A stretch of DNA of 64,000 bases, from the IMG/VR virus record IMGVR_UViG_2565956719_000002; one strand, written 5' to 3'. This stretch comes from a virus. Its lineage: Duplodnaviria > Heunggongvirae > Uroviricota > Caudoviricetes. Made by a program: the position numbers and the translations under genes. How positions within the stretch are numbered: the first letter of the stretch is position 1; the number at the start of each line of letters is the position of its first letter. Below are positions 19,201-33,131 of the stretch, piece by piece. A model generated the notes under the pieces. It ran no database searches, was not told the origin of the DNA, and worked only from the letters and a program-made list of their open reading frames with translations.

Positions 19201-22200
19201 CGCTACGTGATGACACCGTAGATGAGCATGCACAGGATATGCTTTATGACTTCGTTGCCGCCGGACGCGTAGCCAGCGCAATGGACTCCGACTCCCACCG
19301 CAAAGAGGCCGCGCGTCGCCGGGTATTGTCGGAGTATTCAGATACCGGCACCGAAAAAGCAGAGAAGTATCCGTACTTTGAGGATATGGGCTTCGATAGT
19401 GTGATCGCTGACGAAGGTCACAACTACCGCAATAGCTATAAAAATGGTCGCGAAGCGTCACAACTGGCCTATCTGCCCACCAGCGCGGTGGCGCAATCGG
19501 CGCGAGATATGGCAATTAAAAACGCGTACCTGATGAAAAAGAATGGTGGGCGCGGGCCGGTTCTCCTGACTGCAACGCCAGTCGTTAACACCCCGATCGA
19601 TGCATACAACATGCTTTCTCATGTTCTGCCGAAGGAATACTGGCAGAACATGGGGATCTACGGTCCTGATGACTTCGTTAAATTCTTCGGCAAGACCAGG
19701 CTGGAAACGGTACAGAAAATTAGCGGTGAAGTTGAAGAAAAAATGGCGCTGGTGGGCTTTGAAAACCTTGATGCGCTGCGCGGTATATTCCATCGCTGGG
19801 TAACGCTTAAAACGGCGGAAGACGTTAAGGATACCGTGGAGATCCCGGAGCTGGACGAACACCAGCAGGATGCACCACTTACTGAAGAACAACTGGCGGC
19901 GTATGAAGAATTGCGTCAGCAGGCGGAAGCGGCGGCCAAAGCCAACAATGGCGTAACGACCTCGGTCAATGAAGACGGCGTGATTGAGCACGAGAAAGCC
20001 CGTCCGATCTTCTCAATAATCAGGGATATGGACCGCGTATGTACTGACATGGACCTGTACTATCGCCGGATCACCTATCGTTTCCTGCCGGAGTACGCCG
20101 ATGCGGTGCAGCAGCTGGCGGACAGTTTGCCTAAACAAGCCACCAGCGAAGACGACGACAGTGATGATTTAATCACGCAGCAATCGCAATACTCCCTGAT
20201 AGATAAGGGCGAGTTTATTCAGTTGCAGGTTCCGGAAGCGTTCGAGCAGGAAGTGAATAAGCGCCTGGCCAGGTTTGGCATTGACGAACAGACCGTAACT
20301 CACCCCGTTACGCCCAAATACGCGAAGCTGATTGCCACGCTGAAGGAGTTTTTCCCGGAAGGTAAGCAAATCATCTTCACCGATGAAAAAACGCAGCACC
20401 AGAAGCTCAAGCGCATTATCTGCAATGCTCTTAACCTTGAACCTTCAAAGGTGGGGATACTGAATGCTCAGACGGTTGCCGAGGCAGGTAAAACCGGTAA
20501 GAAACTGAAAGCGGTTAAACCGCCGAAAGAGTTACCGGATGAACCAACAGATGCACAGATAGCGAAATACAACGAGCAAATGGCTCTGTATGACGCCTAT
20601 ATCGCGCAGCAAAATGAAATGTCGTTGGGCGGTCTGGAAAAGATTGCAGCCGACTTCCAGGAGGGCCGGACTCCGATCATCATCTGCAACAAAAAGGCAG
20701 AGGTGGGTATCAACCTGCATCGAGGAACGACTGACATCCATCATCTGACGTTGCCATGGACTCCAGCCAGTATTGCGCAACGAAACGGTCGCGGTGCCCG
20801 AGTTGGCTCCAACCGTGCAAGCGTTCGCGTTCACTACTACTGCGGCAAGGGGTCTTTCGATGAATACCGACTGAAGACGCTGAAGCGTAAAGCAGGCTGG
20901 ATCTCCGATATCCTCCGTTCAGATAAGTCAGAAATGGAGAACGCCGACGCCAACGATATGATCGAAATGCAGATGTATACCGCGAAGGATGACGGCGAAC
21001 GTCTGGCAATGATGCAGGTTCAAATGGATAAGGCGAAAGCTGCGAAACGCGCTCGCCAGAAAGAACAGGCTACTATCGACCTTCAGAACTACATCAAGGC
21101 GCAGCACGCAGCTGGTGAGGATGTGGAGGTACTTACCGCTGAATTGGAGCGAAGCAAAGCGGAACTTGAAAAGACCACCGCCGACGTCGCCAAATTCAAA
21201 CAGGCGGTAATGGCCAAAGCAGCTGATAACGCAGACTGGAAAGCCCGCTGGGGTAGCGTCCATCACACAGACCGTATGTTGTTATCACAGTATCGCGCGT
21301 CGTTGAAAAGCGCCATTCAGCGCAAGGCTAATATCTCTCAGGCCATCTCCCGCTATGAGAAATTATTGAACCGTACTCAGAAGGCCGCGACGGATATCAA
21401 ACGCCTGCGCCCGCTGGTGGAGGATGCAATAAATAAAGGCATTCTGGATGTTGATCCTGACCTGGTTAACCATGCGAGTGAGTTCCTTGTTATCGGCGAT
21501 CGCTCATGGCGTGTAGGCCAATACTACGATTGTGCCGGTGATATCGTTCGCATTAAGTCGCTGGACTTCGACAGCCAGCGCGCAGACGTGGAGATCATCT
21601 TTACCTTCAAAGGCACCAAATCGGGTAACTGGGATGTGAAGACGCTGGATAAACAGGTGGATGTAACTCCCGATGAAGATGCTGTTATGCAGAAAATCAG
21701 TGGTGGCGTCTCCATCGCCGGGATTAACGACATCATTTCCTGTGACGATTTCTACCGTTTCCAGCAGCGCGGCATGATCAAAATAACTGACTCGTACGGC
21801 GTTCAGACTACAGAGTCAGGCTATAGCATTGATTTTGTTGGTACCTATACGGACCCACTGAAGCATGCGGTTTACCCGGATCGCCGTGACGGCGCGCTGA
21901 AGTCGTCAATTGCAAAATGGGTGCTTGGTATGATGTCGGAAGGGAATAACCGCCAGATCCGTTCGGCAGAAACATTCCTGGTTGAATTGTTTGGCTCCAA
22001 TTATGGCGATGTAATCGCGTCATACGGAGATACGCTATCCCCTGAAGCAATTCAGGAGAAAATAGCGGATGCGATCGCCAGAATGCCGGAAAAAACAAGC
22101 CAGGGGGCTACTCGTAACGGGGATTCTGAACTTGAAGTCACCAATGCCATTTTCGGTACCAATGAGTTCCGGGGGTCAGATTATGAGATCACCACAGCAC

Positions 22201-23024
22201 AGTTTGGCACCATTGGCATTTACAGCAATAAAGCCGAGATCAAGCAGGCAATGGACGCAGCAAGCGCGCGCATCGCAGCAGAACGGGAAGCCAATCTGAA
22301 TCATGCAGTCGCCGCGCTGACTCAATCGTGGGTAACAGCAATCAGGGAGGCCGCCACCACAGGGAAAATCACACCTGCAATAGCGGATGTCGTAAACGAC
22401 GGCTCTAAATTTATGGATGCCTATCAAATGGATGCGGTGAAGTTGCCATCAGCCTATGGTCAACTCAGCTATCGCATGACCTACAACCTGGTATCAATGT
22501 TTTCCGACCTTGCCATCCTTGGGCTGGTGGATCTTAACGAGGTTACGCCGGAATTGCTCAGCATGCGCAAGAATCATGTGGAGATATTGCAGAGAATTAA
22601 CACGGTTCTTGCCGGGCGCACCGATGAAGAGAAACAGGCCGACGCTGATCGGATAAACCTAGCCCTTGGCAACATCACGGAGGAAGAGATTGCCGCCAGA
22701 AACGAGAAACAAGAAGAGTTATCATCAATACAGGGTGATGCCACCAGCATAGCTCAGTCTCTTGGTCTGAATTATCGCGTATCCACCGCCGACCTGAAGA
22801 TGATGTACGCACCAAAATTCGCCGCTGGCGAGGTATTTGGGCTTCAGGAAGCCTCAGGCATGAAAGGCGTTCTTTTCCGTGCGAAAGACGCAATCAAGGC
22901 GAAATTCGGCGCTCGCTGGCTGCCAGCGAAGGCGAAGAACAGCGATTTCCCGGGTAACTGGTGGATTATCGAGACAAAACACAACGTGGCGGACGTTCTG
23001 GCCGTCATCCAACAATACGCATAA
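16257..23024 (+). CDS. darB: DarB-like giant anti-restriction protein: N-terminal N6-adenine methyltransferase-like domain plus helicase domain
   Basis: 2255-aa ORF; LEPSAGTGVF and GNVPFGG methyltransferase-like motifs; helicase Walker A GFGTGLGKTT and DEGH box; size matches P1 DarB as recalled. Confidence 0.8.
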   Translation: MNKLSMGVFRCSSVSEILKYIRAITSHRAPIKYGVEKVEGKSYDRLRREANQKAIDLLNSLVDGATLTDEQRQILAGYTGEGGIGGSVSEYYTPKPIAEGVWEIMKLYGADVGNTLEPSAGTGVFNETKPVGTVMTATEISSVSGRINQLLHPEDSVQISPFEQLAVSTPNDSFDHVVGNVPFGGRDNTRNIDKPYAEETDMGSYFMLRMLDKIKPGGFMCVIVPPSIVSGSNMKRLRLRLSRKAEFLGAHRLPTGTFDANGTSTVVDVVLMRKHPAEMAEKIPLVDESTLESANVLWPTFISGKWFEKDGRRFVHGTQEKGFQGRIEVRADGQIDNQALKAKLIHRFESRIDWSLLDMAEPSPTADVVGEGEMRLINGVWQKYAGGRWIEADAGKELKIDAASYGADSWEALQRNLTTTEGRLGMTFTQMANVRDKYTTSISDDMVQLVDWINSQPEKYRERLYRGAMIGRMLIEYQDMKAAGHSAEQIEQQRLSLVSRLQAEIDRFGNPGRGPIAKLSGSGARAWFAFRGAIKLDGTISDELTGKLVTHDSSASYDSTSYQDTLRYLYSDLTRDPIQLDDFRLAFTGELPASDDELLNLLASTPGIAVSPYGGIVPFARATSGDINEIVAPKQEFLATLPDGPVKNNVLNQLAAIEEKRIKTPAENIRFKLNSRWFDRSVILEFLQENGYPDLRYVQSVQLEGDEMVSDTYHGGDGLFVGHRYGVVQRKDKETGEIRYEWDRKSGENATGFPAQLEKYLNGARIGGKDSATANGYREQMALLEDQFNKWIKTHDRYDELVAKYNDVFNSNIPYEHSGDPLGLKGLSGKRQPFDYQNSEVRRLSEDGRGILGFGTGLGKTTTALALEAFNYENGRSTRTAYVVPKSVLENWYYEAKEFLSEEAFSNYLFVGLDVLMDGDQIRQVQVLDENGKPVLGTDGTPVMRDALKLADEATITARMNAIPHSNYRAVVFTKEQYARIPLRDDTVDEHAQDMLYDFVAAGRVASAMDSDSHRKEAARRRVLSEYSDTGTEKAEKYPYFEDMGFDSVIADEGHNYRNSYKNGREASQLAYLPTSAVAQSARDMAIKNAYLMKKNGGRGPVLLTATPVVNTPIDAYNMLSHVLPKEYWQNMGIYGPDDFVKFFGKTRLETVQKISGEVEEKMALVGFENLDALRGIFHRWVTLKTAEDVKDTVEIPELDEHQQDAPLTEEQLAAYEELRQQAEAAAKANNGVTTSVNEDGVIEHEKARPIFSIIRDMDRVCTDMDLYYRRITYRFLPEYADAVQQLADSLPKQATSEDDDSDDLITQQSQYSLIDKGEFIQLQVPEAFEQEVNKRLARFGIDEQTVTHPVTPKYAKLIATLKEFFPEGKQIIFTDEKTQHQKLKRIICNALNLEPSKVGILNAQTVAEAGKTGKKLKAVKPPKELPDEPTDAQIAKYNEQMALYDAYIAQQNEMSLGGLEKIAADFQEGRTPIIICNKKAEVGINLHRGTTDIHHLTLPWTPASIAQRNGRGARVGSNRASVRVHYYCGKGSFDEYRLKTLKRKAGWISDILRSDKSEMENADANDMIEMQMYTAKDDGERLAMMQVQMDKAKAAKRARQKEQATIDLQNYIKAQHAAGEDVEVLTAELERSKAELEKTTADVAKFKQAVMAKAADNADWKARWGSVHHTDRMLLSQYRASLKSAIQRKANISQAISRYEKLLNRTQKAATDIKRLRPLVEDAINKGILDVDPDLVNHASEFLVIGDRSWRVGQYYDCAGDIVRIKSLDFDSQRADVEIIFTFKGTKSGNWDVKTLDKQVDVTPDEDAVMQKISGGVSIAGINDIISCDDFYRFQQRGMIKITDSYGVQTTESGYSIDFVGTYTDPLKHAVYPDRRDGALKSSIAKWVLGMMSEGNNRQIRSAETFLVELFGSNYGDVIASYGDTLSPEAIQEKIADAIARMPEKTSQGATRNGDSELEVTNAIFGTNEFRGSDYEITTAQFGTIGIYSNKAEIKQAMDAASARIAAEREANLNHAVAALTQSWVTAIREAATTGKITPAIADVVNDGSKFMDAYQMDAVKLPSAYGQLSYRMTYNLVSMFSDLAILGLVDLNEVTPELLSMRKNHVEILQRINTVLAGRTDEEKQADADRINLALGNITEEEIAARNEKQEELSSIQGDATSIAQSLGLNYRVSTADLKMMYAPKFAAGEVFGLQEASGMKGVLFRAKDAIKAKFGARWLPAKAKNSDFPGNWWIIETKHNVADVLAVIQQYA

Positions 23025-23057
23025 CAGGAGCGCCCGGTTCGCCGGGCGTCGCATAAT

Positions 23058-23498
23058 ATGGCCACACTATCTGATACAATAAAACCGAATAAAACATATC
23101 TTGAGGCGGTACTCCGTACAGCGTTGTTAGGAAAGACAGAAGACGAATACGTTGATTTCTTCCTGTCAGGGCTACGCGGGCGATTACTGAAAAATCCCCG
23201 CCTGTACCGCAGCTATGGCCCATACTGGCCGGAAATTAAAAAATTATTACTGGAGCGCGGTTATGGTAATTTCGGTCGTCTCGTTGACCGTGACGTTCGC
23301 AAATTTTACCGTTATGACCGCCCGGCGCTAACACTCATAGCCGCGACGCTCTACAGCCAGGAGCGTTTTGATAATGGTCAGATATACTCAGCCTGGCATT
23401 TACTGCCAGTGCCTGAAGAAGTTGACGACCAGGACTATGAGTTTGAGTCTTACGATTTGGAAGTTGAAGCCTTGGCACAGGCTGGAGAGAAAACTTGA
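23058..23498 (+). CDS. Hypothetical protein (position of P1 ulx)
   Basis: 146-aa ORF directly after darB. Confidence 0.4.
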   Translation: MATLSDTIKPNKTYLEAVLRTALLGKTEDEYVDFFLSGLRGRLLKNPRLYRSYGPYWPEIKKLLLERGYGNFGRLVDRDVRKFYRYDRPALTLIAATLYSQERFDNGQIYSAWHLLPVPEEVDDQDYEFESYDLEVEALAQAGEKT

Positions 23499-23743
23499 AA
23501 AAGCGATACTACACAGTAAAGCATGGGACGCTACGAGCATTACAAGAGTTTGCTGACAAGCATAACGTTGAGGTGCGCAGGGAAGGGGGAAGTAAAGCTC
23601 TGCGCATGTACCGTCCGGACGGGAAATGGCGTACAGTCGTCGATTTCAAAACAAACAGTGTTCCCCAGGGCGTCCGCGACCGGGCATTCGAAGAATGGGA
23701 GCAGATCATCATAGATAACGCATTGCTCCTGAATGCTGATTAA
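23495..23743 (+). CDS. Small protein (position of P1 lxc, C1 co-repressor)
   Basis: 82-aa ORF overlapping previous stop; assignment by position only. Confidence 0.35.
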   Translation: MKKRYYTVKHGTLRALQEFADKHNVEVRREGGSKALRMYRPDGKWRTVVDFKTNSVPQGVRDRAFEEWEQIIIDNALLLNAD

Positions 23744-23756
23744 ACTTTCCGCCCTT

Positions 23757-23777
23757 TTGCCCGGTCTATCGCCGGGC
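23757..23777. terminator. Hairpin after the darB operon
   Basis: GCCCGG-TCTATCG-CCGGGC stem-loop with weak T-run. Confidence 0.35.
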
Positions 23778-23782
23778 ATCTT

Positions 23783-24424
23783 TCAGAGATAATTACCTTT
23801 ACCCGTCAATTCCCCTTGTGGTACTTGTTTTTGCGCCAGTGTTTGGGTTCCGCGAATTATGTTAATCAGAGGGCTTAGTAACGATGGTTCCTGGCGTGCC
23901 TCAACTTCTCCAGCCATTGCCCTGATGTAGTCGGCGCTGGCAACGTTGTTGTATTCCGTTGCGAAGCAGCATAACAACGTCAGAACATGCTCTGTCGTTA
24001 TTTCGCTCCAGTTGATGTTGAAAAATTCATCGCCTTTTTTATCGTGTTCGGAATCGAAGATGCTTTGGTGGAGGATGTATTTGCCGGATTCCTTGCGCGG
24101 TAACTTGATCGCTTTCTGGCGTTCCAGCTCCTTGTAAATCTGCATTGCTTCAATCAGTACCGGCCTGCCGTTCATGAAGGGATCGCGCAACCTTACACGC
24201 TGGCCAACTCGACCAGTAATAAAGCTGTTTTCCTCTTCCACCAGCACGATAAAACCCTTTTCCTCTTTTTCTCGCAATTCGCGCAGCAGCTGGAGTTCCA
24301 TATCGCGGCGGCGTTCAGGGTAGCTGGTCCGCTCAGCCATTATTAGCTCATTGTTGATCCATGCGGCAGTCATTGACGCCGGTTTGCCGACGCTCATCGA
24401 AACAACGCATATTTTCTTATCCAT
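23783..24424 (-). CDS. Hypothetical protein (accessory region)
   Basis: About 213 aa from ATG (MDKKICV) with AGGGG upstream; no recognisable motif. Confidence 0.5.
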   Translation of the reverse strand: MDKKICVVSMSVGKPASMTAAWINNELIMAERTSYPERRRDMELQLLRELREKEEKGFIVLVEEENSFITGRVGQRVRLRDPFMNGRPVLIEAMQIYKELERQKAIKLPRKESGKYILHQSIFDSEHDKKGDEFFNINWSEITTEHVLTLLCCFATEYNNVASADYIRAMAGEVEARQEPSLLSPLINIIRGTQTLAQKQVPQGELTGKGNYL

Positions 24425-24683
24425 AGCGCCCCTACAAAAAAGAAAAGCCACCAGCGGCGGCTTAGCAATACAACTGAAGGTAGCGCCCGGTACTCAGACT
24501 GTGCCGTCCATGGAATATTTGAAAAGGGATCCATCCGTACCGGGCGTGTGATGATTCTGACTCAAGTCACTTGTCAGTTGTCAATCATTTATCATTAAAA
24601 ATAATATATTTATTAGTGCATACAAATAAGACACTAAGTGTGCACATTGCAACCTCAGAGAGGAAACATTCAACCAGCCTGTA

Positions 24684-24700
24684 ATTGCTCTAATGAATTT
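24684..24700 (+). promoter_or_regulatory. C1-operator-like 17-mer upstream of antirepressor module A
   Basis: ATTGCTCTAATGAATTT, 16/17 to consensus; about 320 bp upstream of the coupled leader ORF. Confidence 0.5.
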
Positions 24701-24860
24701 GATTTTTTGGGGCGGAAATACTACCATTGTACGCCAGACTATTGATCTTCCTGTTGTTCAGGCTTATAGTTCCTACGTCGTAGCAAATTCTGCGACCGGG
24801 TTTGACAGCCTGAATGTACATGCGGACAACCGCAGATATCCGCATATTGCGGTATTTTTG
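24701..24860 (+). ncRNA. Candidate c4-like antisense RNA region of module A
   Basis: Elements 24724-24745 and 24925-24958 are roughly complementary to repeats at 24805-24838 and 24969-25009, the latter overlapping the leader-ORF ribosome-binding site; hairpin CCGCA-TAT-TGCGG plus T-run near 24839-24858. Confidence 0.3.
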
Positions 24861-25018
24861 TGTCCGTAAAACCACGTTACGCCCGAATTATGGTGGGGCG
24901 TGATGGGGAGGCTTCGGCCTGCTGGTTTCATGTACGCCAGTCTGTCAACCCCGTCACGTCCTGCCACCTGTTTGACAGCGGGTAGCAGGTTGTTAAACCT
25001 GTACATGAGGCCGTAACT

Positions 25019-25240
25019 ATGGTTAATGCCAATCCTTGCGCACGCCCTGAATTCATCTGGCGCTTTTACTCCTGCCAGAAACGTCACTATCACTTCGTTA
25101 TCGCACCAACAGAAGATGAGGCACGTTCTCAGCTTCCGGATGCTCCCTGTATTTTCTCTGCCCGCTTTTCTACCGATTTGCGCAATTCTCTCAGTTACTG
25201 GTGCCTCCCTGTTAACGCTTCTGCTCAGGAGGGGCTATGA
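25019..25240 (+). CDS. Leader protein coupled to antirepressor A (icd-like position)
   Basis: 73 codons, GAGG upstream, stop overlaps ant start (ATGA); inverted copy at 31086-31312 differs by 14 synonymous codon changes and one amino acid. Confidence 0.55.
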   Translation: MVNANPCARPEFIWRFYSCQKRHYHFVIAPTEDEARSQLPDAPCIFSARFSTDLRNSLSYWCLPVNASAQEGL

Positions 25241-26295
25241 GAACGTCATTAGTCACCCGTGAAGAGATGATCGAGGCAATTGAACAGCACACTGCCTGTA
25301 TCAGTACCAGGGATATACCTGGCGTTATTGCCAACTACTTCATGATCACCAAACAACTTTACCGGAGAAAGGACAAAAACGCGGTTCACCGCATTCTGCT
25401 GTCTGATATCCGTGAATACCTGCTCGAACAGGGGCATCTGAATTACGCAACCGTCGCAGCCGAAACACGCAAGGAGGCACACAGAATGAAAGCAAGCAAA
25501 CCAGATGTTGTCGTTACAAAGCCTTTGACAGCAACCACACCAGCAACGGCCATGGATGCTATCCCCAACACCGGAGACACAATCGACAGCCAGACGCTGT
25601 TAAAGATGGTCAATGAAGCGCGGAAATTATGTAGCGAAAAACCAGTTCGCAATAATGATTTTATTGCCAGAGTTAAGGATGAACTGGATGGTGAGTACTA
25701 CGAAATTTTCGTAGTGCAAAAATTAAACAACACAACATCTGAAACTATCTCCATGACCTACAAACAAGCCCTGCGAGTTGCCGCGCGCGAGTCAAAAGCG
25801 GTCCGCCGTTCGCTGATCGACAAACTGGAGGAATTGCAGCAGGCTAGCACTGCTTCTCCAGTGATTCCCCAAACACTCCCCGAAGCTCTGCGCCTGGCTG
25901 CCGAGCTGGCTGAACAAAAGCAACTTCTGGAACAGAAAGCCCACCAGCTAAATCAGCAGCTGGTGGCCGCCGCTCCTAAAGTCGATTTTGCCGACCGGGT
26001 ATCAGTAGCTAAAGGGATCCTGATTGGGAATTTTGCAAAGGTTGTTGGACTTAAGCAAAACGCGCTGTTTGCCTGGTTACGGGAGAACGGCATCCTGATA
26101 GCGTCCGGTGGACGTAAAAATGTGCCGTTCCAGCAATACATCAACGCTGGGTATTTTTCTGTGAAAGAAGTGGTGCTGGATGATGAAGATGGCTATCAGA
26201 TACGACTGACGCCCCAGTTAACGGGGAAAGGCCAGCAGTGGTTGACGCGTAAACTGCTCGATGCTGGCTTGTTAAAACCGGTGGCGGCTGAATGA
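25237..26295 (+). CDS. Antirepressor-like protein A (KilA-C-type C-terminus)
   Basis: 352 aa; C-terminal NFAKVVGLKQNALFAWLRENGIL...PFQQYINAGYF typical of phage antirepressor C-domains; N- and C-termini near-identical to copy B, middle unrelated. Confidence 0.7.
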   Translation: MRTSLVTREEMIEAIEQHTACISTRDIPGVIANYFMITKQLYRRKDKNAVHRILLSDIREYLLEQGHLNYATVAAETRKEAHRMKASKPDVVVTKPLTATTPATAMDAIPNTGDTIDSQTLLKMVNEARKLCSEKPVRNNDFIARVKDELDGEYYEIFVVQKLNNTTSETISMTYKQALRVAARESKAVRRSLIDKLEELQQASTASPVIPQTLPEALRLAAELAEQKQLLEQKAHQLNQQLVAAAPKVDFADRVSVAKGILIGNFAKVVGLKQNALFAWLRENGILIASGGRKNVPFQQYINAGYFSVKEVVLDDEDGYQIRLTPQLTGKGQQWLTRKLLDAGLLKPVAAE

Positions 26296-26321
26296 TTAAA
26301 AAAGGCGGCCTTGCGGCCGCC
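26296..26321. terminator. Hairpin terminator (A-run plus GGCGGCC-TTGC-GGCCGCC)
   Basis: Perfect 7-bp stem; read on minus strand it is followed by a T-run. Confidence 0.5.
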
Positions 26322-26542
26322 AATGATGTCACGGAGTCTATAATGGCAATGTGAATGTCTTCGTAGTTGACTAAAGCCACAACTCAATTATAACAATTAA
26401 TTATAGCAATGGTGGCTATTTTATTTATCGCGAATCACATTTTTTCTCTTCAGTACCTGTGTGCTATACTCCTTCTTGATTGATTGGATGCGGAATACAA
26501 ACCCGCTCTTTTGTGCAGCCTGGCTCCTTGCCAGGCTTTTTT

Positions 26543-26854
26543 TTATTTCATCATGGAAGCTGTTAACGCTTTGGACCTTGCTGAACTGATTGAAAGGGCA
26601 TTGTTTACCTTACCCAGGAGTTCGCCAAATTCCCCCATCACTCTAGTAAGCCCGCGCCGCGCTTCCTCCTCCGTTGCATTCATCACAAAATGTTCAGCAC
26701 TCCGCATGCTTTTAACGGGGAACGCAACAGATATCGAGTCGATATCAGGCATCCTATCGCTCAACTTTACGGTGACAATGACAGATGGTGACAGAATATT
26801 AGTGCTTACAGACAGCACTACATATTTTCCGTCGATGTTGAAATCCTTTCTCAT
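26543..26854 (-). CDS. Hypothetical protein downstream of cre
   Basis: 103-aa ORF preceded on minus strand by an operator-like box. Confidence 0.45.
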   Translation of the reverse strand: MRKDFNIDGKYVVLSVSTNILSPSVIVTVKLSDRMPDIDSISVAFPVKSMRSAEHFVMNATEEEARRGLTRVMGEFGELLGKVNNALSISSARSKALTASMMK

Positions 26855-26870
26855 ATGTCACCATAAATAT

Positions 26871-26887
26871 CAAAGAATTAGAGCAAT
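26871..26887 (-). promoter_or_regulatory. C1-operator-like box
   Basis: Core TTAGAGCAAT exact, 13/17 overall. Confidence 0.4.
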
Positions 26888-26904
26888 CATTTGCGCGTTA
26901 ATGG

Positions 26905-27936
26905 CTAATCGCCATCTTCCAGCAGGCGCACCATTGCCCCTGTTTCACTATCCAGGTTACGGATATAGTTCATGACAATATTTACGTTGGTCCAGCCACC
27001 AGCTTGCATGATCTCCGGTATTGAAACTCCGGCGCGGGCCATATCTCGCGCGGCTCCGACACGGGCACTGTGTCCAGACCAGGCCAGGTATCTCTGCCCA
27101 GAGTCATCCTTAGCGCCGTAAATCAATCGATGAGTTGCTTCAAAAATCCCTTCCAGAGCGCGAGTTGATAGCTGGCTGGTGGCAGATGGCGCGGCAACAC
27201 CATTTTTTCTGACACGGCAAAACAGGTAGTTATTCGGATCATCAGCCACACCAGAGACAGAAATCCATCGCTCGACCAGTTTAGTTACCCCCAGGCTAAG
27301 TGCCTTCTCTACACCTGCGGTGCTAACCAGCGTTTTCGTTCTGCCAATATGGATTAACATTCTCCCACCGTCAGTACGTGAGATATCTTTAACCCTGATC
27401 CTGGCAATTTCGGCTATACGTAACAGGGTGTTATAAGCAATCCCCAGAAATGCCAGATTACGTATATCCTGGCAGCGATCGCTATTTCCCATGAGTGAAC
27501 GAACCTGGTCGAAATCAGTGCGTTCGAACGCTAGAGCCTGTTTTGCACGTTCACCGGCATCAACGTTTTCTTTTCGGATCCGCCGCATAACCAGTGAAAC
27601 AGCATTGCTGTCACTTGGTCGTGGCAGCCCGGACCGACGATGAAGCATGTTTAGCTGGCCCAAATGTTGCTGGATAGTTTTTACTGCCAGACCGCGCGCC
27701 TGAAGATATAGAAGATAATCGCGAACATCTTCAGGTTCTGCGGGAAACCATTTCCGGTTATTCAACTTGCACCATGCCGCCCACGACCGGCAAACGGACA
27801 GAAGCATTTTCCAGGTATGCTCAGAAAACGCCTGGCGATCCCTGAACATGTCCATCAGGTTCTTGCGAACCTCATCACTCGTTGCATCGACCGGTAATGC
27901 AGGCAAATTTTGGTGTACGGTCAGTAAATTGGACAT
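26905..27936 (-). CDS. cre: Cre tyrosine recombinase
   Basis: 343 aa, MSNLLTVHQNLPALPVDATSDEVRKNLMDMFRDRQAF...RLLEDGD; matches P1 Cre as recalled except Gly at position 150. Confidence 0.97.
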   Translation of the reverse strand: MSNLLTVHQNLPALPVDATSDEVRKNLMDMFRDRQAFSEHTWKMLLSVCRSWAAWCKLNNRKWFPAEPEDVRDYLLYLQARGLAVKTIQQHLGQLNMLHRRSGLPRPSDSNAVSLVMRRIRKENVDAGERAKQALAFERTDFDQVRSLMGNSDRCQDIRNLAFLGIAYNTLLRIAEIARIRVKDISRTDGGRMLIHIGRTKTLVSTAGVEKALSLGVTKLVERWISVSGVADDPNNYLFCRVRKNGVAAPSATSQLSTRALEGIFEATHRLIYGAKDDSGQRYLAWSGHSARVGAARDMARAGVSIPEIMQAGGWTNVNIVMNYIRNLDSETGAMVRLLEDGD

Positions 27937-27943
27937 TTAACAC

Positions 27944-28165
27944 TCAGATAATAGTTTTAAGTAAAGTGTACAGGATTGGCTCTGCCTTTACCTGTTTATG
28001 GTTCTCGTCATAGAAACGCCAGCGACCGCGCGTGCGTTCTATTTTCTCTTCACCGCGCGATAATGACAGTTGGCAACTATCACGATCAAACCCTTTTGCC
28101 CGCCAGTAACCACGGTTTTTCTCAAGCTCAATATGAGTGGACACTTTAGCAGCTGAATATCCCAT
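27944..28165 (-). CDS. Small protein between loxP and cre (Cra-like position)
   Basis: 73-aa ORF ending 8 nt before cre start. Confidence 0.4.
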   Translation of the reverse strand: MGYSAAKVSTHIELEKNRGYWRAKGFDRDSCQLSLSRGEEKIERTRGRWRFYDENHKQVKAEPILYTLLKTII

Positions 28166-28354
28166 TTTTCACCTCTGATTGATTGGTGGTGCTAAGTGCG
28201 CTACGCGAAATCTGGAGCACTAACACTGCCAACATTTCGCAGATTTTACGTAGCGCAACCTTGATCAAATGATCAAGTGATCACTATTTAACCTGATAAG
28301 GTATTGAACTGTATGGATTTACAGGTAAATTGATCATGTTCAATAACCCTTAAG

Positions 28355-28388
28355 ATAACTTCGTATAATGTATGCTATACGAAGTTAT
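28355..28388. other. loxP recombination site
   Basis: Exact ATAACTTCGTATA-ATGTATGC-TATACGAAGTTAT. Confidence 0.97.
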
Positions 28389-28431
28389 TAGGTCCGAAGA
28401 GGAGTTTACGTCCAGCTGCGCATAAAAATCA

Positions 28432-28448
28432 AGAATTATTAGAGCAAT
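28432..28448 (-). promoter_or_regulatory. C1-operator-like 17-mer facing cre
   Basis: Minus strand ATTGCTCTAATAATTCT, 15/17. Confidence 0.5.
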
Positions 28449-28505
28449 AAATTTTGAGAGAAAAATCCCACTCCACCAGCCAAAAACTGGATTGTTTTTC
28501 ATAGT

Positions 28506-28535
28506 TGTTTGACAATTGCTCTAATAAATTATAGT
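28506..28535 (+). promoter_or_regulatory. Sigma70-type promoter with operator in the spacer, facing the coi-like and c1 genes
   Basis: TTGACA - 18 nt containing ATTGCTCTAATAAATTA (28514-28530) - TATAGT. Confidence 0.55.
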
Positions 28536-28769
28536 TTTGCCGCCGTTTCGTAATACGACTTTGGATTCACTATTTAATGTGTCTTCAGCGTTGTAGAGCG
28601 GCTCAGAAGGAAATGAGCAAACAGGGAAACCTTATACAACGGCATTACAGCTATGCATTGCTCATCTTACACACAGCGCAATGTTGTTAGATTACCCCAG
28701 CATGGATCATGGGTGAAACAGTAGGTCAGAGCTTCAGGCTCTGTGTTGTCAATACAGTGAGGCATAATT

Positions 28770-28979
28770 ATGGCTTTCATTCCACCAACCATCGACGACG
28801 TTAGACATTGCTCTAACGCTTTATCTGTAGACCCCGCCGAAACCGACGCTGCCCGCGCCATTGCTGAACACTACTCAAAGATATCCAATCAGGAGTACCG
28901 CATCACCCAAGACGACCTGGATGATCTCACTGACACAATCGAATATCTCATGGCCACTAACCAACCAGACTCACAATAA
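28770..28979 (+). CDS. coi: Coi-like protein (C1 inactivator position)
   Basis: 69-aa acidic ORF immediately upstream of c1; size matches P1 Coi as recalled. Confidence 0.55.
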   Translation: MAFIPPTIDDVRHCSNALSVDPAETDAARAIAEHYSKISNQEYRITQDDLDDLTDTIEYLMATNQPDSQ

Positions 28980-28995
28980 ATGCACTAATAAATCT
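28979..28995 (+). promoter_or_regulatory. Weak C1-operator-like box between coi and c1
   Basis: AATGCACTAATAAATCT, 14/17. Confidence 0.3.
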
Positions 28996-29089
28996 ATTAT
29001 TTTCGTTGGATCCTTCTATAATGGTGGCCAACAACTCCCAGTGTAATCCGCTGTGAGTTGTTGGCCATGTCAATTCTGGAGGAGGATCA

Positions 29090-29941
29090 ATGATAAATTA
29101 TGTCTACGGCGAACAACTGTACCAGGAGTTCGTCAGCTTCAGGGATCTCTTTCTAAAAAAAGCTGTTGCACGCGCCCAACACGTTGATACAGCCAGCGAC
29201 GGTCGTCCTGTACGCCCGGTTGTCGTTCTACCGTTCAAAGAAACTGACAGCATTCAGGCTGAAATTGATAAATGGACTTTAATGGCGCGGGAACTGGAAC
29301 AGTACCCAGACCTCAATATCCCAAAGACTATTTTATATCCAGTGCCTAACATCCTTCGCGGTGTGCGTAAGGTTACAACTTATCAGACAGAAGCTGTGAA
29401 CAGCGTCAACATGACCGCTGGCCGCATTATTCATCTGATTGATAAGGACATTCGCATCCAAAAAAGCGCGGGGATCAATGAGCACAGTGCGAAATACATA
29501 GAGAACCTGGAAGCAACAAAAGAGCTAATGAAGCAGTACCCGGAGGATGAAAAATTCCGTATGCGTGTACACGGCTTTAGCGAAACAATGTTGCGCGTCC
29601 ATTACATTTCCAGTAGCCCTAACTACAATGATGGTAAATCAGTTAGTTACCATGTGCCGCTGTGTGGTGTGTTTATCTGCGATGAAACTCTCCGTGATGG
29701 AATCATCATCAACGGTGAATTCGAGAAAGCAAAATTTAGCCTTTATGACTCCATAGAACCGATCATCTGCGACCGCTGGCCGCAAGCAAAAATATATCGC
29801 CTGGCAGATATTGAAAATGTAAAAAAACAAATTGCCATCACTCGCGAAGAGAAAAAGGTTAAGTCAGCCGCATCAGTTACGCGCAGCCGTAAAACCAAGA
29901 AGGGGCAGCCAGTAAACGACAACCCCGAAAGCGCGCAATAA
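29090..29941 (+). CDS. c1: C1 repressor of lysis
   Basis: 283 aa beginning MINYVYGEQLYQEF; size, start and context match P1 C1 as recalled; GGAGG upstream. Confidence 0.75.
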   Translation: MINYVYGEQLYQEFVSFRDLFLKKAVARAQHVDTASDGRPVRPVVVLPFKETDSIQAEIDKWTLMARELEQYPDLNIPKTILYPVPNILRGVRKVTTYQTEAVNSVNMTAGRIIHLIDKDIRIQKSAGINEHSAKYIENLEATKELMKQYPEDEKFRMRVHGFSETMLRVHYISSSPNYNDGKSVSYHVPLCGVFICDETLRDGIIINGEFEKAKFSLYDSIEPIICDRWPQAKIYRLADIENVKKQIAITREEKKVKSAASVTRSRKTKKGQPVNDNPESAQ

Positions 29942-29944
29942 ATT

Positions 29945-29970
29945 ATGCCCGGCATCAACCGGGCATTCTT
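29945..29970. terminator. Bidirectional terminator between convergent c1 and antirepressor B
   Basis: GCCCGG-CATCAA-CCGGGC hairpin with flanking T-rich runs on both strands. Confidence 0.6.
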
Positions 29971-29973
29971 CCA

Positions 29974-31089
29974 TTATTCAGCCGCCACCGGTTTTAACAA
30001 GCCAGCATCGAGCAGTTTACGCGTCAACCACTGCTGGCCTTTACCCGTTAATTGAGGCGTCAACCGTATCTGGTAGCCATCTTCATCATCCAGCACCACT
30101 TCTTTCACCGTGAAATACCCCGCGTTGATGTACTGCTGGAACGGCACATTTTTACGTCCACCGGACGCTATCAGGATGCCGTTCTCCCGTAACCAGGCAA
30201 ACAGCGCATTTTGTTTAAGTCCAACGACCTTTGCAAAATTCCCAATCAGGATCCCTTTAGCTACTGATACCCGGTCGGCAAAATCGACTTTAGGAGCGGC
30301 GGCCACCAGCTGCTGATTTAGCTGGTGGGCTTTCTGTTCCAGAAGCTGCTTTTGTTCAGCCAGTTCGGCAGCCAGGCGCAGAGCTTCTGGAAGCGTCTGG
30401 GGGATTGCAACCGGTTGCTGTTCTTTTTGCCGGAAGTAGCTGTCTTCCAGTTTTTCAAAGAATGCCCATGCCTGATCGGTTTCGAGCATTTTAGCGTGGC
30501 GGGCTGCGCCGCGTTCCGTCCAGAGGATGAGTGAGCGGGCTTTAGGAGAGATAGGATTTTGTGAGTTACTTAAAGTCACCCGCAAATTGTTCAAATCATC
30601 TCCAATAACTTTATAGAAATGCTTACCTTCACAAAAACGTTCAGCATTACGGGAAAAGTTCTTCTTGATGTTATCCGCATCTGTCCCATACCCCTTAGCA
30701 AGGATCTTAGTTGTCACTACACGCACTCCCTGCCACTCTAGAACGGGAATTTCATCCGGCTGACTTTGAACAACCACCAGTTCTGATTCCTGAACTAAAG
30801 GTGTATTAATTTTTTCAGATTTAACGTTAGTAGCTTTCATTCTGTGTGCCTCCTTGCGTGTTTCGGCTGCGACGGTTGCGTAATTCAGATGCCCCTGTTC
30901 GAGCAGGTATTCACGGATATCAGACAGCAGGATACGGTGAACAGCGTTCTTGTCCTTTCTCCGGTAAAGTTGTTTGGTGATCATGAAGTAGTTGGCAATA
31001 ACGCCTGGTATATCCCTGGTACTGATACAGGCAGTGTGCTGTTCAATTGCCTCGATCATCTCTTCACGGGTAACTAACGATGTTCTCAT
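29974..31089 (-). CDS. Antirepressor-like protein B (Bro-N-type central domain plus KilA-C-type C-terminus)
   Basis: 371 aa; central VLEWQGVRVVTTKILAKGYGTDADNIKKNFSRNAERFCEGKHFYKV Bro-N-like; first 86 and last about 143 residues near-identical to copy A. Confidence 0.75.
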   Translation of the reverse strand: MRTSLVTREEMIEAIEQHTACISTRDIPGVIANYFMITKQLYRRKDKNAVHRILLSDIREYLLEQGHLNYATVAAETRKEAHRMKATNVKSEKINTPLVQESELVVVQSQPDEIPVLEWQGVRVVTTKILAKGYGTDADNIKKNFSRNAERFCEGKHFYKVIGDDLNNLRVTLSNSQNPISPKARSLILWTERGAARHAKMLETDQAWAFFEKLEDSYFRQKEQQPVAIPQTLPEALRLAAELAEQKQLLEQKAHQLNQQLVAAAPKVDFADRVSVAKGILIGNFAKVVGLKQNALFAWLRENGILIASGGRKNVPFQQYINAGYFTVKEVVLDDEDGYQIRLTPQLTGKGQQWLTRKLLDAGLLKPVAAE

Positions 31090-31312
31090 AGTCCCTCCTG
31101 AGCAGAAGCGTTAACAGGGAGGCACCAGTAACTGAGAGAATTGCGTGAATCAGTGGAAAAACGGGCAGAGAAAATACATGGGGCGTCAGGAAGCTGAGAG
31201 CGGGCCTCATCTTCTGTCGGTGCAATAACGAAGTGATAGTGACGTTTTTGGCAGGAGTAAAAGCGCCAGATAAATACAGGATGAGTTGGGGTAGGGATAG
31301 TAGCCATATTGG
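31086..31312 (-). CDS. Leader protein coupled to antirepressor B (icd-like position)
   Basis: ATG with GGAGG upstream; 62 C-terminal codons conserved with copy A; stop overlaps ant start. Confidence 0.5.
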
Positions 31313-31472
31313 CAGCCTCCTTAGACGTTGGTATGTAACCACCGCAGAAGAGACCAATCTTGCTGGCGGTGGACTGTACGGAGTTGGCCTTACTGGCGTC
31401 CAAGGTAACCAGCCTACCCGAAGGTAGCCCCATACAGCCCACCATTGTAGAGGTGTGCGTGTACGCCGATAC

Positions 31473-31495
31473 AAAAAAAAGACGCGAGCGGCGTC
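31473..31495 (-). terminator. Hairpin plus T8 on minus strand (pacB terminator and/or 3-prime end of a c4-like RNA)
   Basis: GACGCCGCTCGCGTC followed by TTTTTTTT on minus strand. Confidence 0.6.
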
Positions 31496-31626
31496 TGTAT
31501 CGCCTTAGACTTAAGCGGGAGGCCAATCCCGGCACCCGTTTTAATGAGGTGCCTGATAAGCATAAACCGAAAATGCCTCAAGGCGCAAGAGGTCAGGTTC
31601 AATGTAACATCGGCAGTCAAAAAACA
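31496..31626 (-). ncRNA. Candidate c4-like antisense RNA region of module B
   Basis: Contains ATTGGCCTCCC, complementary with a 2-nt bulge to the GGAGGCTGCCAAT ribosome-binding region of the leader ORF; lies between operator-like box and hairpin. Confidence 0.3.
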
Positions 31627-31643
31627 CAATTTATTAGAGCAAG
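31627..31643 (-). promoter_or_regulatory. C1-operator-like 17-mer upstream of antirepressor module B
   Basis: Minus strand CTTGCTCTAATAAATTG, 15/17; about 315 bp upstream of leader ORF B. Confidence 0.45.
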
Positions 31644-31646
31644 ATT

Positions 31647-33131
31647 TTACTCATTAAGCCATGCCAGAGCTTCATCAACCTGCGCTTCGTCTTCGACGCT
31701 AAGCACTTCATCCTGGGGAACATAATCCGCCAGCATAGCGAAACAATATGTATCCCAATGGTCTGGTGAATGCAGGTTGAGTTTTTTCTTCATATCCTCC
31801 TTACTCATCACCTTCCATTGACCTGCGGAGTTAATCCCTACAGGGATTTTCGACGCTTCCTCAATAGTTTCATTACCCTTATCCAGTCTCATACGACCAG
31901 ATTTTACGGCCTCTGCGGCTTGAACGTTGGCATAAGCACGTTTATCAAAGTACAGGCTCTTATCTTCACGGCTATGCATCTTTTTACCCCAGCGTATACG
32001 CTGTACGGTAATACCATAATACTCGTACATCAGATCCGCCGTTGCTTTACCCAGGCCATCGCCGTCTATCGCTATGGTAATATTTGGGAATCGCTCAGGA
32101 TTACATTCTGCGAAAATTTTGGCGGCAAGCTGCGTTTCTGTAACGTCTGTGTATTCCAGCATTCGATAGTTGATTACACGGCGTTTATTTCTCTGGCCGG
32201 ACACCATCATGATATTGATAACGGACTTATCCCGTCCCGTACCACCAGCAACGTCCACACATGCAAGCCAGCCCCATCCTTTGGCAATCTTGACTTTCCG
32301 CCGCGTCGCACGTTCAACCTCATCACGTCCAAGAAGGAAGCCATCCTGTGATTTAGGGAATAGTCCGCGTACCTTAATCATGTACATAGGGTTATCACGC
32401 CCGCCGTACTCCGCCAGCTTCATTTTGATAAATGCTGGCGTTACCAGCGGTGATTCCTCACTGTTAAGCGTGATCGCCGTATAAACGCCATCAGGGTTAC
32501 CAGGACGCTTGGCCAGTTTATGGTGAGTATCGTAGAAATAGCCGCTTGGGCGTGTAGGCTGTGACAGTAATAAGATGCGGTTATCCTGTCCGGTAAGAGC
32601 ACCGGTGATGATACCGAAAGCTCTATCACTGACACCGGAGGCTTCATCGATAATATACAGAAGATGATCTGCGTGTTCACCGGCGAGAGCTTCTTCACTT
32701 CCCAGACGAAAGCCCTTCGGTACTACAGTCCATACACCTTTACCAGTAACCTCATAGAAAGCGGTTTCTGTCAGAACAAAATAATCAGCAAGCCATGGAA
32801 AACGGCTGGTGGCAGTAGCCCAGTTTATCTTGATGTACTTGAATATACCGGTCATTACCTGCTGAATTTTGTTCGCAACGATAATGGCGCGGGCACCGGG
32901 ATACATGATTATGAACAACATGATCATGATAGAAGTCATGTCTGATTTCCCGGTACCGTGACCAGACGAAACAGATGTCTTGCTACCCTGTTCCTGCACA
33001 GACTCAATAATCAGATCCTGCTGCCAGGTAGGTGTTTTGCCGAACAAAACATCAGCGGCAGCAATCCAGTCATAACGATATAGCGCCACCAGCTCGCGCC
33101 AACGTGGATCCGTTACGCAACTTCTGGCCAT
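31647..33131 (-). CDS. pacB: Terminase large subunit PacB
   Basis: 494 aa; ATPase motifs ([18 protein letters not shown]) and RNaseH-like nuclease motifs ([21 protein letters not shown]); follows pacA. Confidence 0.85.

Follow-up and report, generated by a model that had tools for sequence, protein, structure and literature searches.

Two additional, probably functional immunity-I-type modules with different antisense codes beside the immC-lox-cre region of a P1-like phage-plasmid

The stretch of DNA analysed here, termed the window in the following, comprises 64,000 nucleotides of the IMG/VR virus record IMGVR_UViG_2565956719_000002 (Caudoviricetes), and the region under study covers the surroundings of immC-lox-cre in a P1-like (Punavirus) phage-plasmid, with c1, coi, cra, cre and c8 96-98% identical to annotated P1. 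This region carries two operons in inverted orientation, module A (24684-26295, plus strand) and module B (31643-29974, minus strand), which are probably two extra working copies of the immunity-I (ImmI) operon of P1/P7, i.e., stacked orthogonal antisense immunity modules widening both the immunity and the anti-immunity of the element. The analysis established the anatomy of both modules, their membership in known RNA families, the complementarity and covariation of their antisense sites, the intactness of their genes under purifying selection and their spread among relatives. The feature is an extension of the classical P1/P7 system and not a new kind of system. A preliminary description of the window, which proposed two diverged antirepressor modules of immunity-I type around a possibly invertible core, is thereby partly supported.

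In P1 and P7, the C4 RNA pairs with the target sites a2 and b2, blocking translation of icd and thereby synthesis of Ant (Citron and Schuster, 1990, summarised in PMC12197685). The heteroimmunity of P1 and P7 rests on their different a/b sites, the C1 repressors of the two phages being interchangeable (PMC12197685). This C4 heteroimmunity is a textbook case of antisense control and is known as one module with two alleles. All parts of the P1/P7 operon (Oc4/Op51, P51a/b, a1-b1, c4, a2-b2, icd and ant1/ant2) are found in module A in the same order:

24684-24700, plus strand: C1 operator ATTGCTCTAATGAATTT, equivalent of Oc4/Op51, one mismatch to the consensus ATTGCTCTAATAAATTT
24742-24770, plus strand: sigma-70-like promoter TTGATC-17-TATAGT (promoter scan), homologous to the annotated P1 promoter P1c4 (P51b)
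24764-24822, plus strand: sense copies of the C4 targets (Rfam c4-a1b1, RF03163, 54.5 bits at 24764-24816)
24802-24808, plus strand: a1, TTGACAG (site search and pairing)
24816-24822, plus strand: b1, GTACATG (site search and pairing)
24840-24862, plus strand: hairpin CCGCATATTGCGG with T-rich tail between b1 and c4, candidate leaky terminator (terminator scan)
24886-24971, plus strand: C4 antisense RNA (Rfam RF01695, 70.7 bits, cut-off 45)
24929-24935, plus strand: b' loop, CAUGUAC, within C4
24942-24948, plus strand: a' joint, CUGUCAA, within C4
24972-24978, plus strand: target a2 (site search and pairing)
25001-25007, plus strand: target b2 (site search and pairing), running into the icd Shine-Dalgarno sequence GAGG (25007-25010)
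25019-25240, plus strand: icd, 73 codons (open reading frame list; phrog_1426, E 4.8e-46), its stop overlapping the ant1 start (ATGA)
25237-26295, plus strand: ant1, 352 amino acids (Pfam ANT, PF03374, E 2.2e-31), KilAC C-terminus, P1/P7-type middle
25486-25488, plus strand: nested ant2 start ATG, Met84 of Ant1, Shine-Dalgarno sequence AAGGAGG at 25471-25477

The leader of module A is 84-86% identical to that of P1/P7 and shares with it the C4 fold and the site geometry; it matches c4-a1b1 and not isrK. The hairpin at 24840-24852 and the T-rich tail TATTTTTGTG behind it are conserved in P1 and P7. AntA is 75-78% identical to P1/P7 Ant1 over the whole protein, and its middle, for which no Pfam match was found, corresponds to the P1/P7 Ant middle. 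Module B has the same order of parts on the opposite strand:

31627-31643, minus strand: C1 operator CTTGCTCTAATAAATTG, two mismatches to ATTGCTCTAATAAATTT
31472-31552, minus strand: IsrK-like leader RNA (Rfam isrK, RF01394, 60.8 bits, cut-off 50, at 31552-31475)
31526-31520, minus strand: a1, within the isrK match
31510-31503, minus strand: b1, within the isrK match
31496-31480, minus strand: intrinsic terminator followed by T8 (terminator scan)
31449-31362, minus strand: C4 antisense RNA (Rfam RF01695, 75.9 bits, cut-off 45)
31405-31398, minus strand: b' loop, CCUUGGAC, within C4
31390-31384, minus strand: a' joint, AGGCCAA, within C4
31357-31351, minus strand: target a2, UUGGUCU, pairing with one G.U pair
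31326-31319, minus strand: target b2, GUCUAAGG, overlapping the Shine-Dalgarno sequence AAGGAGG (31322-31316)
31307-31086, minus strand: icd, 73 codons, ATGA overlap with ant1 (open reading frame list)
29974-31089, minus strand: ant1, 371 amino acids (Pfam ORF6N, PF10543, E 8.7e-19 in the middle; ANT, E 1.4e-31), KilAC C-terminus
30840-30838, minus strand: nested ant2 start ATG, Met84 of Ant1 (alignment)

Module B is arranged like the P1/P7 operon, with the icd coupling and with the Ant1 N-terminus and KilAC C-terminus of its antirepressor retained, and differs from it in its isrK-type leader, in its other a/b sites and in the ORF6N middle of Ant. Its leader (31277-31551) shows 78-80% identity to isrK-C4 regions from Stx2a/Oslovirus and other Stx/lambdoid phages. 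With the Gifsy-1 isrK-(C4/STnc1160)-orf45-anrP locus and its Stx/lambdoid homologs it has in common an isrK RNA and terminator followed by a C4-family RNA, a short open reading frame that overlaps by ATGA with the start of the next gene, and an antirepressor as this gene. In contrast to these loci, module B resides in a P1-like plasmid under a C1 operator and carries the 73-codon icd in place of orf45; its antirepressor has the ends of P1 Ant1/Ant2, and its a/b alleles differ from those of the Stx examples examined.

The common architecture of both modules had been recognised in the preliminary description and holds in most of its parts, at the positions given and far above chance. The operator-like 17-mers heading the modules both align with P1 Oc4, and 15 matches to the consensus were found in the window against 0.31 expected. 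The leaders, described as about 315 bp long with a hairpin and a T-run, measure 318 bp (A) and 319 bp (B), with hairpins at 24840-24852 and 31496-31480, respectively. The 73-codon reading frames with the ATGA overlap are present, and the annotation of relatives labels the counterparts of both as Icd-like. Moreover, the first 86 and the last about 143 residues of the antirepressors, reported to be near-identical, are identical and differ at one position, respectively, in the alignment of AntA and AntB. AntB matches P1 Ant1 only at these N-terminal 86 and C-terminal 143 residues, its middle being ORF6N. The middles had been called AntA-like in A and Bro-N-like in B; neither label is borne out by a Pfam match. 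They had also been called unrelated, which is too strong since both match phrog_1726 and phrog_63 at overlapping profile positions. At the DNA level, the shared ends form two inverted-repeat arms bracketing the c1-coi-loxP-cre region with its exact loxP site:

25046-25493, partner 30833-31280: arm 1, 3' part of icd and Ant1-specific N-terminus, 448 nt, 94% identity
25864-26319, partner 29950-30405: arm 2, KilAC part of the Ant C-terminus, 456 nt, 93% identity

Met84, the Ant2 start in P1, is preceded by AAGGAGG and does not vary among P1, P7 and the two modules. The shared 5' arm ends exactly at this Shine-Dalgarno sequence and Met84; it thus covers the extension specific to Ant1, and the variable part starts with Ant2. 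In their icd/ant arms, A and B constitute a separate lineage, the identity of their icd to canonical icd being 79-82%. Both ant genes have remained intact and show purifying selection: 72 of the 74 ant copies of the A/B lineage are full length, and dN/dS amounts to 0.03 for A-type and 0.12-0.15 for B-type ant. The AntA middle (25579-25842) also shares about 92% identity with antirepressor genes found in many Stx2a phages, which together with the likeness of the module B leader to Stx phages suggests that lambdoid prophages and P1-like plasmids have exchanged parts of modules.

Both C4 RNAs are predicted to form a long closing stem with a UUCG-type hairpin, next to which a further hairpin presents b' in its loop and is followed by a single-stranded a' joint. 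The predicted minimum free energy is -45.4 kcal/mol for C4-A (z -4.7, a' and b' both unpaired) and -41.6 kcal/mol for C4-B (z -3.5, sites unpaired). The cognate duplexes of b loop and target reach -11.9 and -13.9 kcal/mol, compared to -3.7 and -5.6 kcal/mol for the A-B cross pairs, and overall the loop-restricted b-site duplexes range from -11.7 to -13.9 kcal/mol if cognate and from -2.6 to -6.9 kcal/mol if non-cognate. The 7-mer targets in the leaders were found exactly at the a1/a2 and b1/b2 positions. The preliminary description had placed self-complementary segments, acting in the manner of the P1 c4 RNA, in the two leaders. That each leader would pair with its own, different target is retained; the antisense RNA is located elsewhere. 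The segments 24701-24860 and 31496-31626 (minus strand), considered as the antisense RNAs, contain the sense a1/b1 copies (c4-a1b1 and isrK, respectively), and their predicted pairing with the icd ribosome-binding sites is not stronger than that of shuffled sequences.

For the specificity, a comparison of modules gives stronger evidence than these energies. Modules were surveyed in IMG/VR loci around c1 and the conserved C4 core, to which P1, P7 and three complete plasmids were added; the counts refer to modules in database contigs and are not independent events. Regular expressions left 14 of 124 P1-class sites unparsed, the printed cases being flank variation with sites still matching, as well as 3 of 44 isrK-class candidates (one flank variant and two spurious anchor matches). 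Among the resulting 110 P1-class modules there are two a-alleles (GACAG and AGCAG) and six b-alleles (GAUUGUG, ACUUACG, GUACAUG, GUUAGUG, ACGAAUG and ACUUGUG), which occur in 11 of the 12 possible combinations. In all 110, a1, a' and a2 match at 5/5 positions and b1, b' and b2 at 7/7. In the 41 isrK-class modules, three a-alleles combine with three b-alleles in five ways, and the complementarity is 7/7 and 8/8 throughout. The same rule with further alleles is followed by the Stx phage F039, by Ss-VASD and by the second D6 module. Such a compensation in three places over many alleles would be hard to explain without function, despite the non-independence of the counts.

Module A is encoded as GACAG/GUACAUG and module B as UUGGCCU/GUCUAAGG. 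Module A thus pairs the a-allele of P1 with a b-allele that is absent from P1 (GUUAGUG) and P7 (GAUUGUG). As judged from predicted pairing, the a/b codes of A and B are orthogonal to each other and, at the b site, also to those of P1 and P7. The proposal of two immunity-I-type modules of different specificity is supported at this level by the duplex energies and by the covariation in 151 modules.

The insertion sites were defined by alignment to annotated P1, in which both modules are missing. Module A takes the exact place of the ref open reading frame between c8 and mat (P1 2070-2628); of the flanks, the Oref/Pref region with hairpin and T-run and, on the opposite side, Omat are kept. Module B occupies the spacer of 24 bp between pacB and c1 of P1. 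The preliminary description held this layout to be absent from the P1 map, which is correct, since P1 has ref at the A site and 24 bp between pacB and c1; however, it is common in P1-like plasmids. A continuous match to at least 80% of 24400-31700 is present in 46 PLSDB records and the mat-A-c8-cre junction in 56, and the double layout is found in plasmids of E. coli, E. albertii, E. fergusonii and Shigella. The best database matches to the element are 97.8-98.3% identical. The IMG/VR sample comprises 80 loci with c1, in which C1 is 99-100% identical. In about 32 of the 80 both modules are missing (the P1-like arrangement), in about 38 the c1-pacB (B) site alone is occupied by a module, five have A and B (two of these loci ended early by a contig end) and two have A only. 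In three more, an A-leader module is found only on the far side of mat, and L032 carries that module together with B. In L032, L049, L080 and L027, the A-leader module beyond mat has a B-type middle and lies in the opposite orientation; in L049 and L080 its b-allele is ACUUACG.

Three complete relatives additionally carry the canonical immI linked to kilA-repL. In total, E. fergusonii pRHB32-C05_4 and the E. coli ETEC1701 plasmid have three modules each and E. albertii pEA18_2 has four. The fourth icd-ant module of pEA18_2 (L210 9227-10536, record 59127-60436), with the code GACAG/ACGAAUG, lies between head-processing and lysozyme genes, giving at least four insertion sites for such cassettes in P1-like plasmids. 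Within each of the three complete plasmids, and likewise in three further pairs on the same contig, the b-alleles all differ. The b-allele GUACAUG occurs in 10 of 12 modules at the A position compared to 2 of 56 at the kilA-linked canonical position. Compared with the single P1/P7 operon, which lies between sim and kilA-repL, the situation here is distinguished by the position of modules A and B beside immC/lox-cre and by the extra copies, with three to four modules per complete relative.

The following mechanism would account for these observations. In each module, a C1 operator would guard the outer promoter and a second promoter, homologous to P1 P51b, would transcribe the leader, in which the sense decoy copies a1/b1 and a leaky terminator precede a C4 RNA of about 77-88 nt. 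C4 would expose its unpaired a' joint and b' hairpin loop, which could then pair with the targets a2 and b2 a short distance downstream; as the icd Shine-Dalgarno sequence is covered by b2, this pairing would block icd translation. Because ant1 appears to be coupled to icd by the ATGA overlap, C4 would also prevent synthesis of Ant1 and Ant2, which, without the C4 block, would inactivate C1. Since P1-like elements share essentially identical C1, a lysogen with several C4 species would silence the ant operons of more superinfecting relatives. Conversely, if a superinfecting phage brings several ant operons with different keys, it should escape residents missing even one matching C4. We infer that the stacking of orthogonal modules reflects a lock-and-key arms race.

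For the leader RNA, the Gifsy-1 locus offers a precedent: the IsrK terminator is read through there, and IsrK in trans activates the coupled pair of open reading frame and antirepressor (PMC4825925). By analogy to this work, the short a1/b1 leader RNA may counteract repression, for example by titration of C4 or by remodelling of the mRNA. The IsrK-like RNA may act as a built-in anti-antisense decoy or as an activator.

A more general reading, to which we give an even chance, is that P1-like phage-plasmids compete by a combinatorial two-site antisense code, in which the C4 RNAs and ant operons, and not the repressor, would decide on establishment and induction between relatives. The carriers of this code would be portable c4-icd-ant cassettes of two leader classes with at least 11 and 5 a x b combinations, two to four per genome and mutually orthogonal.

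Several points weigh against functional, orthogonal modules. Processing of C4 from a precursor (by RNase P), translational repression and binding of Ant to C1 are deduced by homology. The -10 element of the module B promoter (TATCAG) is weak and lies under the threshold of the promoter scan. The duplexes of the whole C4 segments with the ribosome-binding regions are not significantly better than those of shuffled sequences (z -1.2 for A and -2.4 for B), and because the energy of whole-C4 duplexes discriminates weakly, the case rests on loop accessibility and covariation. Moreover, module A has the same a-site as P1, so that a partial cross-reaction with P1-type C4 is possible. The a' of C4-B (AAGGCCAA, 31384-31390) can also pair with GAGGCCG at the icd-A ribosome-binding site (25006-25012) with -8.8 kcal/mol, which could be a cross-talk between leader classes or incidental. 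The same pairing of C4-B a' with the ribosome-binding site is possible for P1-class leaders generally. Furthermore, the difference of b-alleles within genomes (eight pairs, not independent) is alone not statistically significant and could reflect the descent of the cassettes instead of selection. Finally, the window stops before the canonical immI position, and the module count given for this element is that within the window.

The main competing explanation is that the extra Ants, especially AntB, are not aimed at C1, and that they inactivate the repressors of other prophages or are controlled by their C4-like RNAs, resulting in cross-talk between phage-plasmids and lambdoid prophages instead of immunity between P1-like elements. 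The similarity of the module B leader and of the AntA middle to Stx phages described above and the ORF6N middle of AntB are compatible with this explanation. Furthermore, trans-acting antirepressors coordinating the induction of several prophages are documented in Salmonella (PMC3121763), and the second D6 module carries a/b alleles of some P1-like B modules. However, a C1 operator heads both modules, and neither has lost the Ant1-specific N-terminus of P1, the start of Ant2 or the KilAC C-terminus of P1 type. The a/b alleles of module B are not those of the two Stx-phage C4s examined, so that cross-regulation at the RNA level with those phages is not predicted, and the target of an Ant is not readable from its sequence. 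Taken together, we regard cross-talk as an unlikely main role of the modules, compared to control of C1 by additional immunity-I operons.

The preliminary description also suggested that the inverted homologies might allow inversion of the core. In this reading, the core of 3.6-5.3 kb (c8-cre-lox-coi-c1) would be an invertible segment, and RecA-dependent flipping would switch the gene context or swap ant middles between the leaders. Two inverted repeats of about 450 bp with 93-94% identity are indeed present. In addition, leader A is joined to middle B in L029 and L034, and c1-adjacent modules with middle A occur in several plasmids; since middles are found in other combinations of leader and position, recombination between arms has happened over evolutionary time. 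PLSDB was searched with a synthetic flipped junction (mat-module A-c1), which detects inversion through either arm, at a coverage of at least 80%. This junction was found in 0 of 827 matching plasmid records, compared to 56 records with the native junction of the same length. An alternative orientation of the core was not found in IMG/VR either, as all 80 loci keep the order mat(-) c8(-) cre(-) c1(+) pacB(-). Within a genome, the identity between the arms of A and B is 93-96.7%, compared to a mean of 94.3-94.7% between genomes, and since they are not more alike within than between genomes there is no sign of ongoing exchange or concerted evolution, which argues against frequent exchange. The inverted repeats are nothing more than conserved coding ends of paralogous genes. 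A rare inversion within a culture may occur, while plasmid records and IMG/VR loci show one orientation; as the explanation of the feature, an invertible segment is very improbable.

Equally improbable is that one or both modules are inert leftovers of a duplication or insertion with no present function: complete relatives carry a canonical immI elsewhere, so that the extra modules are not obviously required, but the open reading frames are intact with dN/dS of 0.03-0.15 and nearly all copies full length, the RNA sites covary perfectly and the modules are conserved across plasmids of four species. The idea of a decayed copy was rejected on the same grounds, as no frameshifts were found.

Related genes were reported before. 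According to PMC6906374, pTZ20_1P and RCS47 carry ant with two short open reading frames between pacB and c1, and pSvP1 has icd-ant1/2 homologs in RD-1, a res-mod region adjoining mat. For a D6-like plasmid (pYU39_89/D6), a second c4-icd region is reported (PMC6799933). Within the text searched, the reports on RCS47, pTZ20_1P, pSvP1 and the D6-like plasmid give the genes as insertions and do not describe C4 RNAs, a/b codes or the presence of both extra modules together with a canonical one. In the openly accessible text searched, no description was found of the grid of C4 alleles, of P1-like elements with an isrK-type leader or of genomes with three to four orthogonal modules. In place of the one classical operon, a whole set of cassettes is seen here, which differ in many recognition alleles and of which one genome can contain several. 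Their carriers are phage-plasmids that are common in E. coli and related bacteria and in many cases bear resistance genes. Should the modules function as proposed, they would set rules of compatibility and induction among P1-like elements and would offer natural orthogonal pairs of antisense RNA and target.

The core between the modules (26543-29941) was assigned from the open reading frame list and its 96-98% identity to annotated P1, and is bordered by hairpins next to both ant genes:

26304-26321: hairpin GGCGGCC-TTGC-GGCCGCC directly 3' of antA (alignment with P1 1940-2100)
26543-26854, minus strand: c8
26905-27936, minus strand: cre
27944-28165, minus strand: cra
28355-28388: loxP (exact match)
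28770-28979, plus strand: coi
29090-29941, plus strand: c1
29947-29964: hairpin between the convergent stops of c1 and antB (sequence)

To the right of the core follow pacB and pacA, and to the left mat and a darB-like gene. The hairpin at 26304-26321 is inherited from the region upstream of P1 ref and is followed by T6 on the minus strand, making it a candidate terminator for c8/Pref read-through. The adjoining stretch 26298-26430 keeps the P1 Oref operator, the Pref promoters and the hairpin and T-run preceding ref in P1; the ref open reading frame itself is gone. Transcription from the Oref/Pref side would enter antA in antisense direction unless the transcript is stopped at this hairpin. 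On the other side of the core, the convergent stops of antB and c1 are 32 bp apart (29942-29973) with the single hairpin at 29947-29964 in between, and read-through from antB would be antisense to c1.

Directly beside mat, where P1 has res-mod, a gene for a DarB-like methylase/helicase of 2255 amino acids and two small open reading frames are found (16257-24451). Relatives carry SIR2, MBL-fold or type III restriction-modification genes at the same spot, which makes it a variable defence/anti-defence locus. Finally, three tRNA genes are located on the minus strand at 59020-61049 (Rfam, 64.7-74.5 bits), as expected of a P1-like genome.

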